Assembly (NCBI GenBank): GCA_963763105.1
Contig: CAVXMT010000005.1
Span: 4,685 to 68,684 of the forward strand
Direction of reading: 5' to 3'
Source: an uncultured Candidatus Altimarinota bacterium
Lineage (GTDB): Bacteria; Patescibacteriota; Gracilibacteria; BD1-5; UBA2023
DNA: 64,000 nucleotides
How positions within the stretch are numbered: the first letter of the stretch is position 1; every line of letters begins with the position of its first letter. Of the stretch, positions 139 to 38,926 are shown in pieces. A program made the position numbers and the translations under genes. The notes under the pieces are model-generated. The model did not search any database. It had not been told where the DNA came from and saw nothing but the letters and a program-made list of their open reading frames with translations.

Positions 139-1527
139 CTATTTCCTATACTTTCTCCCCTTGAGTTCCTCTGGAAAATGTTCCTGTTCACTTTTCTTCG
201 ATTCAAGATTATGAGCATACTCGTATCCTTTTCCGTATCCAGCTTCTTTCATGAGACTTGTTGGAGCATTCCGAAGATGAAGAGGGACTCATAGATTTCA
301 GAATTCTCGAATATCACTGTGCATGGCTTGCATCGCTATGTATACGGAGTTGTCTCGTGGGGCTCATGCAAGATGGTAGGCAAGCTTGCAGAGTGGAAGT
401 TCACATTCTGGCATTCCCATTTTTTCACATATATCATAGACAGAATTAGCCATGATCATTGCGAGAGGATCAGCGAGTCCGACGTCCTCGGAAGCAAAGT
501 TGATCATTCGTCTGGCGATAAATCGAGGATCTTCACCACCAGCAAGCATGCGTCCTATCCAATATATTCCTGCATCGCCATCAGAATCACGGAGAGATTT
601 ATGCATGGCAGAGATGAGATTGTAGTGTTCTTCACCATCTTGATCATAGTTCAGAGATTTACTTCCAGCTTCAAGGATATTTTCTCGAGTGAGAGCTCAT
701 GTTCATTGGAGAATGCAAGCAGTTTCAAGAAGATTCAGAGTGTTACGAAGATCGCCTCATCAGAGCTTGGCAATAAGTCTGAGTACCTGTCATTCCTGCG
801 AAGGCAGGAATCCAGTATTTTTCTCTATACTTTTGTGACCAAAAGTATCAAAAGTCTCGGTGGAAGAAAAACTCGTTCGCTGTCGCTCATTATTTTCCTG
901 TTCTCATCTAACTCAGACAGTTTCTTCCCCCGAACCCTGCTGATTTCACTGTTCTCATGGCTTTACTGAAAAAATAATTTTCGGGTAGCGTGATTGAATT
1001 TCTGAGATATTCTTCTCGAGAAAAGCAATAATATCCTCTTCTTTTATCGGTTCGAGAATATATGTCCGACAGCGTGATAGGAGTGCATTGATCACCGTAA
1101 AACTCGGATTTTCTGTCGTTGCGCCAATGAGGGTGATGATGCCTTTTTCTACCCATGGAAGGAGTACGTCTTGTTGCGACTTGCTCCAGCGATGGATCTC
1201 ATCGAGAAAAAGGATAGTCTGTCTCCCTTCCTTGAAGTTTTTTTGGGCCTTTGCAATGATCTTTACGACATCTTCCTTTTTCGATAGGACTCCAGAGAGA
1301 TGGAAAAATTCTCCATCGAGTGAATTCGAGATGACACGAGCAAGTGATGTCTTTCCACATCATGGTGGTCACCAGAGAAGAATCGAAGGAAGTCTGCCTG
1401 CTTCGATAAATTTTCTGATCGATTTTCCTGGTCCAATAAGATGGGATTGTCCTACGAGATCATCGAGAGATTCAGGGCGGAGAAGCGAAGCGAGGGGAGT
1501 AATATTTTTTTCGAAGAGAGAATTCAT
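139..1527 (-). CDS. rarA: replication-associated recombination protein A (AAA+ ATPase RarA/MgsA) carrying a ~56-codon in-frame insertion
   Basis: Table-25 translation. Walker A is W-G-PP-G-CGKTS with both Gly encoded by TGA (1369-1371, 1360-1362). Also [31 protein letters not shown] and the C-terminal MgsA region [24 protein letters not shown] stop at 139-141. Confidence 0.9.
788..957. repeat. repeat-derived in-frame insertion inside rarA with two perfect hairpins (REP-like family, copy 1)
   Basis: Hairpin 1: ATTCCTGC-GAAG-GCAGGAAT (792-811). Hairpin 2: ATACTTTTG-TGAC-CAAAAGTAT (827-848). The GTCATTCCTGCG...CAGGAATCCAGT core recurs at 32146 and, as a variant, at 38235. Confidence 0.7.
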
Positions 1528-22196: not shown

Positions 22197-22820
22197 ATGA
22201 AAGCTCCTCTCTTCGACACTCACGGAAAAAATAAAGGTACTATCGACCTTGCAGATTCTCACTTTGGAGTCACTCCAAATCTTGGACTTATGCATCGTCT
22301 CCTTGTCCTCCAGCAGGCCAATGGGCGTATCTCAATAGCACACACAAAACATCGCGGTGAAGTCGCTGGATCGACACGAAAACTCTTCAAGCAAAAAGGA
22401 ACAGGAAATGCTCGTATGGGTGATAAGCGTTCTCCAATGCGTCGTGGTGGAGGTGTTGTATTTGGTCCTCGAAGTGAGAGAAATTTTTCTCTCTGTATGA
22501 ATGCTCAAGAGCGTCGACTTGCTCTTCTTTCTCTTCTCTCGACAAAGGCAACAGCAGAAAATGTAAAAGTCGTCGAATCATTTGGAAAAGATGTCGCAAA
22601 GACAAAAGGAATGATGGTTTTTCTCTCTACTATGGAAGCAAAAAAACCTCTCATTGCTATCACTCGAGAAGAAAAAGACCAGATTGCAGGAGCATGGAAT
22701 ATTCCAGAACTTAAGGTGGTGAATGTCGAATATCTCAATCCGCACTCACTTCTCAAATACAAAGATCTCGTCTTTACAGAAGCTTCTCTCAAGCATCTCT
22801 ACGAACACTTTACAAAATAA
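22197..22820 (+). CDS. rplD: 50S ribosomal protein L4
   Basis: KQKGTGNARMGDKRSPMRRGGGVVFGPR. Confidence 0.95.
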   Translation: MKAPLFDTHGKNKGTIDLADSHFGVTPNLGLMHRLLVLQQANGRISIAHTKHRGEVAGSTRKLFKQKGTGNARMGDKRSPMRRGGGVVFGPRSERNFSLCMNAQERRLALLSLLSTKATAENVKVVESFGKDVAKTKGMMVFLSTMEAKKPLIAITREEKDQIAGAWNIPELKVVNVEYLNPHSLLKYKDLVFTEASLKHLYEHFTK

Positions 22821-22891
22821 TAGATTCGAGATGACAAATTCCAGGAATGAAATCTCTTCATCTAAAACTAAAACCCTCTAAATCTCTTCTT

Positions 22892-23185
22892 ATGAACTCT
22901 CTCTACTCAGTTATCAAACGATTCATCGTCACCAACAAGTCTACCGATGGTGAGGTACGTGGTGTATACACATGTTTTGTAGATCCAAGTGCGACAAAGA
23001 TTGATATAAAAAATGCATTTAAAACTCTCTATTGAGTTGGAGTCAGCAAAGTGAATATTCTTATGACTCGTGAGAAATTCCATAATACAAAGGCTTGAGT
23101 TACTCAAAAGAGACACTCAGAAAAGAAGGCTATGGTAACACTCAATGATGGACAGAAGATAGTAAATTTTGACGCTATAAAATAA
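22892..23185 (+). CDS. rplW: 50S ribosomal protein L23
   Basis: Position between L4 and L2. ...FVDPSATKIDIKNAFKTLY-G-VGVSKVNIL. Internal ATG chosen at 22892. Confidence 0.85.
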
Positions 23186-32145: not shown

Positions 32146-32207
32146 GTCATTCCTGCGTAGGTCTTCGATCAAATGGAGTGATACCCTTGCGGTACAGGAA
32201 TCTAGAA
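32146..32207 (+). repeat. REP-like element, copy 2 (long form)
   Basis: GTCATTCCTGCGtagg...N35...ggtaCAGGAATCtAGaAT. Compare GTCATTCCTGCGaaggCAGGAATCcAGtAT at 788. Confidence 0.7.
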
Positions 32208-37379: not shown

Positions 37380-38111
37380 ATGAAAAACGTTATCGAAATT
37401 CATCATCTTACAAAAAAAGTAGGAAAGGCAATACTTCTTCATGACATCCATTTTTCACTCACGAAAGGAGAAGTTTTCTGATTTCTCGGACCAAATGGCT
37501 CTGGAAAGACAACAACAATGAAGTGTATACTTGGTATTATGCGACCTACAGAATGAGATGTGAAGATTTTATGAGGATCTATAGATAATGCGAAAATTCG
37601 CAGTAAGATAGGATTCATGCCAGAGAATACCTATCTCTACAAGTATCTCACGTGAGATGAATTTCTTGATTTCAATGCGGAATTCTATGGACTCCGAGGT
37701 GAGATGAGAGAAAAAAGAAAAACCCTCATTCTCGAAAAAGTCGGACTGCTACCCGCTCGAAAAAAAAGACTTAATACTTATTCAAAGGGGATGCTTCAGA
37801 GAATTGGTCTCGCACAAGCAATTCTCCATGATCCAGAAGTTATCTTTCTCGATGAGCCAATGAGTGGACTCGACCCACTTGGTCGCAAGATGGTAAAAGA
37901 TCTCATTCTCGAGCTCAAATCCGAAGGGAAAACCATATTCTTCAATACCCATATTCTCTCTGATGTCGAAGCGCTCTGCGATCGATTTGCTATCATCTCC
38001 TGATGAGAAATCATTCTTGATATGCAGACAAAAGACCTCAAAGAACCACTCGAAGATCTTTTCATGAAAATGATTCTCGAACACAAAGGAACCGAATTCA
38101 CGGGAGAGTAA
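37380..38111 (+). CDS. ABC transporter ATP-binding protein (no adjacent permease)
   Basis: Walker A GPNGSGKTT, signature YSKGMLQR, Walker B VIFLDEPMSGLD, H-loop. Confidence 0.88.
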
Positions 38112-38145
38112 TCCTATTTCAAAAATATTTTTCCCCCATGTATAT

Positions 38146-38168
38146 ATTATGAGAATTATTCTCATAAT
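38146..38168. promoter_or_regulatory. perfect 11-1-11 palindrome, candidate PerR/Fur box upstream of the peroxiredoxin
   Basis: ATTATGAGAAT-T-ATTCTCATAAT. Confidence 0.55.
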
Positions 38169-38234
38169 TATTTGATTTCATAGAAAATATTTATATAATT
38201 CTGTCTGTTGTTCGATTATGGAGTATTTTCAGAA

Positions 38235-38266
38235 AAACTGGATTGCTTCGTACCTCGCAATGACGG
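38235..38266 (-). repeat. REP-like element, copy 3 (variant core, opposite orientation)
   Basis: The reverse complement reads cGTCATTGCGAGGTACGAAGCAATCCAGTTTTTCT. Confidence 0.6.
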
Positions 38267-38308
38267 GAAACCCCTACTTTTTACTATCTCTATTAACTAT
38301 TACTATTT

Positions 38309-38926
38309 ATGTCTTGTTGTGATAATGAATTTATGTTTGAACAGGTAAAAATCGATACCCCAGTTCCTTTCTTTGATCTTCCTGCCTACGATCCTATCAA
38401 GGATGACACTACTCAGATTTCTCTCGAAAGTATGCACGGAAAGTGGACAGTACTTTTCTACTATCCAGCTGATTTTACTTTTGTTTGTCCGACAGAACTT
38501 AAGGATATGGCAGAAGCAAAAACACAATTCGATGAGCTCGGAGTCGTGGTCCTCGCAGCAAGTACTGACACAGTATTTTCTCATCGCGCATGGGTGAAGC
38601 ATGAAGGTCTCATGAAGAATTTCCCTTATCTTATGCTCTCGGATCATGGACTCGATGTTGCTGCCGCATACAATCTTCTTGATGAGAAATCAGGAATCGC
38701 TGGTCGTGGTACATTTATCATTGATCCAGAGGGAATCTGCCGAGGTGTTGAAGTCACGAGTGGTCCGCTCGGACGCAACTCTGTCGAGCTCCTTCGAAAG
38801 ATCGAAGCACTCCAATATATGAGTGCCAATCCTGGAACAGCGTGTCCAGCACGATGGACTCCAGGAGCGAAGACCCTTACTCCATCTATCAAAATAGCTG
38901 GTGAAGTGGAAGCACAACTTCAGTAG
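38309..38926 (+). CDS. ahpC: typical 2-Cys peroxiredoxin (AhpC/Tsa family)
   Basis: KWTVLFYYPADFTFVCPTEL (peroxidatic Cys) and ...ACPARW (resolving Cys). No TGA codons. Confidence 0.85.
   Translation: MSCCDNEFMFEQVKIDTPVPFFDLPAYDPIKDDTTQISLESMHGKWTVLFYYPADFTFVCPTELKDMAEAKTQFDELGVVVLAASTDTVFSHRAWVKHEGLMKNFPYLMLSDHGLDVAAAYNLLDEKSGIAGRGTFIIDPEGICRGVEVTSGPLGRNSVELLRKIEALQYMSANPGTACPARWTPGAKTLTPSIKIAGEVEAQLQ

Follow-up and report, generated by a model that had tools for sequence, protein, structure and literature searches.

We analyzed a 64,000-nt stretch of DNA, hereafter the window, from an uncultured Gracilibacterium and examined a repeat-derived insert within its rarA gene, which encodes a MgsA/RarA-type AAA+ ATPase. 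The window corresponds to C5:4685-68684 of G000, a 0.94-Mb draft genome of 15 contigs that is 83% complete; G000 denotes the genome under study throughout, other G numbers denote related genomes, L numbers denote loci, and C numbers precede contig coordinates. Genes in the window are open only under genetic code 25, in which TGA encodes glycine. The rarA product matches the Pfam families MgsA_C (E = 3e-52), AAA, AAA_assoc_2 and RuvB_N and is 96% identical to its orthologue in G010 (Table 1).

Code-25 translation of the minus strand across positions 757-1002 reads RYPKIIFS followed by 60 residues that include five TGA codons, and this translation sets the bounds of the insert. The original prediction, made from the sequence of the window, had placed an insert of about 56 codons at 788-957, close to the 60 codons at 787-966 observed here, and both the five TGA codons and the frame that stays open only where TGA is read as glycine are seen as it had described them. 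The two perfect hairpins that it named are likewise present, ATTCCTGC-GAAG-GCAGGAAT at 792-811 and ATACTTTTG-TGAC-CAAAAGTAT at 827-848. The first of these folds at -14.7 kcal/mol (z = -4.15), and none of 200 shuffles folds equally well. The proposal that the insert belongs as a whole to one repeat family did not survive: a hairpin unit of the repetitive extragenic palindromic (REP) type, which we call family A, accounts for only 27 of the 180 inserted bases, and positions ~816-955 form a separate element of ~130 nt, family B. Family B is itself composed of two modules, B1 and B2. The B1 module encodes 32 residues and forms a stem of ~15 pairs, 7 of them covarying, around a loop of ~55 nt; the B2 hairpin, with a stem of 9-12 bp, encodes (T)FGHKS and also occurs solo in related genomes; and the family A unit encodes TGFLPSQEG on the gene strand. 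AlphaFold2 modeling on an 18-sequence alignment assigns residues 188-245 a pLDDT of ~25 and no secondary structure, as against 80-90 in the flanks, and the insert therefore appears in the model as a disordered surface loop of RarA. Comparison with G010 counts 8 non-synonymous and 6 synonymous changes within the insert, for a ratio of non-synonymous to synonymous substitution rates (dN/dS) of 0.31; the remaining gene has a ratio of 0.04.

Table 1. Positions of rarA, of the modules of its insert and of further repeats (window coordinates unless a contig is named)
Feature	Position	Strand	Description
rarA (MgsA/RarA AAA+ ATPase)	142..1527	-	462 aa under code 25; all motifs intact
Whole in-frame insert	787..966	-	60 codons (VKPGEQ...SQEGQ), five TGA = Gly codons
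Family A unit (CGTC-tagged REP)	788..815	+	tag tGTC, stem ATTCCTGC, loop GAAG, stem GCAGGAAT, tail CCAg
A-rich spacer GAGAAAAATA	816..826	-	joins B to A; homologous in other B-A composites (alignment of copies and flanks)
B2 module	827..848	-	hairpin ATACTTTTG-GTCA-CAAAAGTAT on gene strand; stem covaries (helix 2)
B1 module	849..955	-	leader GAACAGTGAAATC; long stem GGGGGAAGAAAC paired with GTTTTTCTTCCACC; copies by nhmmer and BLAST
Long-loop variant of the rarA A subtype (GTCATTCCTG...CAGGAATCTAG)	32146..32205	+	between duplicated rplO tail and duplicated terminator
Family A unit, GCGA subtype (cGTCATTGCGAGGTACGAAGCAATCCAG)	38238..38264	-	intergenic
IS200-like copy	C1:105194-105802		
IS200-like copy	C2:~38060-38660		
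IS200-like copy	C5:~100800-101400		outside the window
IS200-like copy	C7:~22440-23040		

Two dispersed families of palindromic repeats

Searches of G000 with the rest of the insert, by BLAST and nhmmer, define family B as an element with three copies in this genome. Each is in frame with its host gene, the hosts being rarA and the genes of an RNB-domain RNase R and a HemW-like radical-SAM protein. In the genus and in one neighboring genus, each genome has two to six full copies, the 3′ hairpin module is found solo further afield among relatives, and across these genomes copies are both intragenic and intergenic. Intragenic copies always lie in the same orientation and frame, at five independent host sites (RarA, RNase R, the HemW-like protein and two more in relatives), and encode a peptide of the form G-x-GEETVGVRGEQEN...FGTFGHKS. 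The frame used in genes contains 2-5 TGA codons and is open only because TGA encodes glycine here: of 19 copies, 15 are free of stop codons in this frame when read with code 25, and none when read with code 11. An antisense frame is open more often still (17/19), and stop avoidance alone therefore does not explain the frame bias; the probable target of selection is the encoded peptide, hydrophilic when translated in sense and, in the antisense frames, rich in Phe, Leu and Ile.

Family B is also conserved as a structure. RNAalifold analysis of the 19 copies yields a long stem of 15 pairs and a 3′ hairpin; with the hairpin extended, the structure comprises 26 pairs that are paired in 92% of cases, and 11 of these have changed on both sides. 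In 500 column shuffles the observed value was never reached on any of five measures, and sliding the structure by 1-3 columns lowers pairing to 37-58%. Pairing of the B stems is maintained by compensatory changes, which are present even between orthologous RNase R copies. The RNase R and HemW insertions are old, since they are orthologous in several species. We sought a precise empty site by comparing G000 with its sister G010 and found none, the B loci confined to G010 having no counterpart in the incomplete G000 assembly.

Family A is more numerous, and a hairpin-aware search recovered 34 units of the form GTCAT-hairpin-ATCCAG in G000, bearing out the dispersed REP-like family that had been predicted. 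The rarA unit spans 27 nt at 789-815, and this length, exactly nine codons, is shared by 27 of the 34 units. A C or T precedes GTC in 31 units, giving a CGTC or TGTC tag (TGTC at 788-791 in rarA), and 32 units end in CCA(G/T/A), with CCAG in rarA. The majority belong to a GCGA subtype whose stem combines five perfect pairs with an internal loop and a single closing pair; ATTGC/GCAAT and ATCGC/GCGAT are covarying forms of this stem, and covariation also links the first loop position to the last. The pattern GTCATYGCGA-N4-7-GAAGCRATCCA matches 28 times in G000, and GCGA-subtype copies number 0-28 per genome over 61 related genomes, with zero matches to a reversed control throughout. Less common is the ATTCC subtype, to which the rarA unit belongs and whose 8-bp stem is perfect. 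Both families are thus dispersed, with copy numbers that differ between related genomes.

About 20 family A units (~60%) lie in frame within open reading frames recognized by Pfam, among them those of the cysteinyl-tRNA synthetase CysRS, LigA (NAD-ligase), RecG, a class II aminoacyl-tRNA synthetase, a MiaB-like enzyme, RecJ, an HI0933-like protein, MurG, an ABC ATPase, Xth and a Type ISP enzyme. By inspection, code 25 leaves all six frames of the consensus unit open, and the standard code leaves five. At least eight inverted pairs with units 6-30 nt apart occur in G000 (C1:35368-35440, C1:143603-143685, C3:34138-34205, C3:45674-45749, C6:205293-205371, C6:247502-247584, C7:1085-1146 and C2:60713-60791), usually joining one ATCGC-stem unit to one ATTGC-stem unit, and in-frame pairs are found in CysRS, an M3-like peptidase, the class II aminoacyl-tRNA synthetase, Xth, RecJ, the ABC ATPase and the Type ISP enzyme. 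The rarA unit is single.

The two families are physically linked. An ATTC-type family A hairpin follows B through a homologous A-rich spacer, in constant relative orientation, at six independent loci: rarA of G000 and G010, rarA of G001, L046, L057, L047 and L044/L054. This linkage identifies the rarA insert as one mosaic unit, B1-B2-spacer-A, with the GTC tag as its outer end.

The RarA site in related genomes

Among 41 related genomes searched, RarA was found in 20 of 24 same-family relatives, and the other matches were weak and to other AAA+ proteins. Many relatives show the match in two parts, residues 2-188 and 249-463, with few bases between. Seven orthologues (G003, G017, G013, G006, G019, G022 and G018) have 3-6 residues between the motifs RYPKIxF and NLxLIAxLG, compared to 60 in G000, and G000, G010, G007, G001, G009 and G004 hold repeat-derived inserts at this site; the alignment of orthologues identifies the segment as an insertion, as had been proposed. 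G000 and G010 share the same insert, with 92-95% DNA identity across insert and flanks. In G001 a B-A composite lies between ATGG and GGACAC (filled site ATGG/GGGCTCGGGGG...GGAATGAC/GGACAC, slashes marking junctions), and the corresponding site of G003 is empty (ATGG/GAAACA). Comparison of these filled and empty junctions reveals no terminal inverted repeat and no duplication longer than 2 nt, although the alleles are ~20% diverged and small duplications could be hidden.

Other relatives occupy the site differently. G007, G004 and G009 carry B without A, and G011 and G008 carry A dimers with tags pointing outward, the G011 dimer retaining the AATGAC/GGACAC junction of G001. RarA of G002 (L032, G002:C4) has the length of an empty site yet contains a perfect hairpin with a 9-bp stem, TTACTTTTG-GATA-CAAAAGTAA, which encodes TFGYKS in the frame of B and corresponds to the B2 module, the 3′ hairpin of B; this solo B2 could be what a deletion left behind, a module standing on its own, or host sequence that resembles a target. 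In G023 (L030, G023:C1:529350-532985) a complete DUF559 domain, a Vsr-like nuclease, is inserted in frame at the same loop (RarA residues 211-315, E = 8e-31). A quick RarA tree intersperses these states, and the scatter of empty, B-only, B-plus-A, A-dimer and DUF559 states among orthologues shows that the RarA site is a permissive loop that has repeatedly gained, exchanged and lost elements within the genus.

The DUF559 domain of G023 is bounded by the peptides PLDKGGGGDL and NPPNPLSQGG, each encoded by a G-rich palindrome. A DUF559 domain is also present in frame in RecG of G000 (L004, C2:29006-31441), where it occupies residues 434-540 and separates the DEAD domain from Helicase_C, and the same protein holds a family A hairpin at residues 270-279.

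Origin of the insert

We consider it likely that selfish palindromic DNA repeats, joined into a mosaic, make up the insert, and that they lodged in a permissive loop of RarA and are translated through as a disordered loop. The insertion point would be a loop between two elements of the AAA+ lid region, and the ribosome most likely reads straight through, adding ~60 disordered residues. The units would spread as single-stranded hairpin DNA in the manner of REPs and bacterial interspersed mosaic elements, without terminal inverted repeats or target-site duplications and with an enzyme provided in trans, and selection would retain those insertions that keep the frame, lack TAA and TAG, and place a hydrophilic peptide rich in Gly, Glu, Ser and Thr in a surface loop. 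The peptide itself would have no required function of its own.

Several observations weigh against this explanation. No recent transposition was caught: copies within G000 are only ~80% similar to one another, and the insertions in RNase R, HemW and RarA are old ones that different species have in common. No mobilizing enzyme for A or B was identified among the Y1 transposase and small GIY-YIG candidates examined. The compensatory changes in B could arise from palindrome-templated repair instead of selection, the dN/dS of the insert is based on 14 substitutions, and translation through the insert is deduced only from frame, length and stop-codon statistics.

The persistence of the insert in G000, G010, G007, G004, G001 and G009, its dN/dS below 1 and the one constant frame of intragenic B copies are also what an extension of RarA that arose in place would leave, for example a lineage-specific, functional disordered linker or interaction loop to which the likeness at other loci would be secondary. 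We judge this improbable, because the same 130-nt DNA recurs in unrelated genes and in intergenic DNA, base pairing is conserved rather than the peptide, AlphaFold2 predicts the insert to be unstructured, and the site is empty in several close relatives and holds unrelated elements in others. An artefact of assembly or binning, in which a chimeric join would have placed the insert in a rarA gene that lacks it, can be set aside almost entirely: G000 is an incomplete draft and repeats are prone to misassembly, but the independently assembled G010 carries the same insert at the same site with its flanks, related versions occur in G007, G004, G001 and G009, and the frame is kept in all.

The conserved, covarying and RNA-compatible structure of B would also suit an element that is removed before or during protein synthesis, whether as a small intron-like RNA, by a bypass like that of mitochondrial 'byps' or T4 gene 60, or in the manner of an intein, so that mature RarA would lack the insert. 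This is very unlikely given that every intragenic copy keeps the frame and avoids TAA and TAG in the frame used, a constraint from which a spliced or bypassed element would be free, and that 27 of the 34 family A units are exactly nine codons long. Rfam recognizes no group I or II intron and no other family above threshold, and an Rfam scan of the region gave no intron match at E values up to 10; as an intein, 60 residues would be too small, and neither Cys/Ser/Thr ... His-Asn junctions nor intein motifs are present.

A more ambitious proposal, to which we give limited credence, is that the B-A composite is a still-active, non-autonomous element of single-stranded DNA, specific and adapted to Gracilibacteria that read TGA as glycine. 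Its covarying stems would form a recognition structure for a trans-acting nuclease or transposase, and homing to hairpin-like sequences would then explain how, within a single genus, the RarA loop came to be hit, to exchange one B subtype for another, to have A dimers take their place and to be emptied, and why the solo B2 of G002 stands in the same frame. The "safe" frame, with its 2-5 TGA codons and closed under the standard code, would on this proposal be an adaptation to life inside essential genes.

Relation to known repeats and candidate mobilizers

Family A closely resembles the CGTC-tagged REPs, which are defined by a CGTC, TGTC or CCTC tag, a stem of 8-9 bp starting with AT, a loop of 4-5 nt and a CCA tail (Di Nocera, De Gregorio and Rocco 2013, BMC Genomics 14:522, PMC3733652). 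According to that survey, such REPs frequently form inverted dimers, have copies in genes, lack a dedicated transposase and are equated with Neisseria dRS3 and with the elements RPE-4 and RPE-6 of Rickettsia (PMC3733652). The REP/dRS3 likeness anticipated by the original prediction is borne out, in that the 27-nt rarA unit shows every published feature of these repeats: the tag, an 8-bp stem initiated by AT, a 4-nt GAAG loop with CGTC-1 geometry, and the CCA tail. Family A as a whole matches the same descriptions in being dispersed, often in inverted pairs and sometimes in genes, many of them for replication or repair, with no dedicated transposase evident. It differs in its host, a code-25 Gracilibacterium of a phylum unnamed in the passages of the survey used here, in the ~60% of its units that are intragenic, in the fusion of the rarA unit to a longer element, and in the GCGA subtype, which has the published stem in part (a 5-bp perfect stem with an internal loop). 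In REPIN/RAYT systems GTAG-tagged REPs flank a RAYT (Y1) gene; family A is tagged CGTC rather than GTAG, and the Y1_Tnp domain of G000 sits in an IS200-like element with end hairpins of its own.

Family B can be compared to the Rickettsia palindromic elements (RPEs) of RPE-1 type, reportedly described by Ogata et al. in 2000. [quoted passage not shown] The parallel in in-frame habit, also anticipated by the prediction, holds as an analogy: B resembles these elements as a palindromic repeat of 100-150 nt that is found in frame in unrelated housekeeping genes, uses one frame and appears to be tolerated in loops, and one end of the composite carries the CGTC tag. Unlike RPE-1-type elements, B uses a frame that needs TGA to be read as glycine and belongs to a mosaic of separable modules (B1, B2 and A), and the likeness is put forward as an analogy. 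The small, non-autonomous QMITEs of Coxiella burnetii, which reportedly can bear on the evolution of proteins and small RNAs (PMC5896051), offer another point of likeness, as do classical MITEs, but terminal inverted repeats and target-site duplications of the MITE kind are not visible at the G001/G003 rarA junctions. Among the papers listed by a literature search for such elements in Gracilibacteria, none names Gracilibacteria. The general phenomenon is already known; of some novelty here are the structured B family, its strict use of one frame and its dependence on TGA as a glycine codon.

The reading of selfish palindromic repeats as protein, a phenomenon of the Rickettsia type, thus appears to extend to a recoded relative within the candidate phyla radiation. 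Loss of the TGA stop there widens the frames open to such repeats (the B frame is free of stops in 15 of 19 copies with code 25, but in no copy with the standard code). The inserts disrupt gene calls and domain matches in the annotation of Gracilibacteria, and they flag permissive loops in conserved enzymes including RarA, RNase R, tRNA synthetases and RecJ. Family B also adds a structured repeat supported by covariation to the question of how CGTC repeats are mobilized.

Two candidate mobilizers were considered and rejected. An IS200/IS605-like element of ~605 bp, encoding a Y1 transposase with TGA codons, is present in four copies in G000 that are 99.7-99.8% identical, a degree of identity on account of which it looks recently active; one copy adjoins the HemW-like gene, 0.5 kb from its B copy. 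Its end hairpins are unlike A and B, however, and Y1_Tnp occurs only in G000 and G008, 2 of 12 genus genomes, the other 10 of which carry A or B. The second candidate derives from Neisseria, where NTS and Ssn-related motifs (SRMs) are single-stranded DNA targets of SsnA GIY-YIG nucleases (Chenal et al. 2025, Nat Commun 16:2388, PMC11893778). Aligned to the NTS consensus CGTCATTCCCGCGMAVGCGGGAATCYRG, the rarA hairpin agrees at 25 of 28 positions, with two of the three differences forming a compensated stem pair, but the degenerate SRM pattern has 3 matches in G000 against 1 for the control, and none of these falls on the local units. The stand-alone GIY-YIG gene of G000 (C1:233528-233809, 84 aa) is of UPF0213 type, with 1zg2 and 1ywl as its best matches in the Protein Data Bank, whereas ssnA is of cd10448 type, ~94 aa, and flanked by the motif. 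Small GIY-YIG genes are found in every genus genome at one copy or more, with eight matches in G001, and are present whatever the repeat load; no hairpins lie within 700 nt of the G000 gene or at six orthologous loci. A link to the Ssn system in this genome is not established, because the SRM pattern is not enriched and the only small GIY-YIG gene is UPF0213-like and unflanked.

Comparison to known RNAs returned two further candidates that we rejected. A hammerhead-like reading of CAGATGAG...CGAAC in B fails on a missing conserved U, and Rfam gives no match to it. The only hit of the Rfam scan was a sub-threshold one to FtrB (RF02748), which aligns over its full length to window positions 767-876 on the plus strand with 27.8 bits, compared to a gathering score of 66; homology to this small RNA is not supported at that score, and the match comes from a shared CGTC-type hairpin, GUCAUUCC-GCG-AGG-C-GGAAUC. 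FtrB is a small RNA of Francisella whose consensus contains the hairpin GUCAUUCCCGCGUAGGCGGGAAUC, which suggests a CGTC-type repeat as the basis of the FtrB family.

Elsewhere in the window, two recurrences of the rarA hairpin had been predicted. The copy GTCATTGCGAGGTACGAAGCAATCCAG exists at 38238-38264 on the minus strand but belongs to a different subfamily from the rarA copy, with the weak 5-bp GCGA stem. The recurrence GTCATTCCTGCG...CAGGAATCTAG also exists, at 32146-32205, but adjoins the 3′ side of a duplicated rplO tail rather than lying inside it, and folds no better than shuffles (z = -0.3). The duplicates of the rplO tail and terminator bracket a 1.5-kb cassette inserted after rplO, and the hairpin variant may mark a junction of this cassette.

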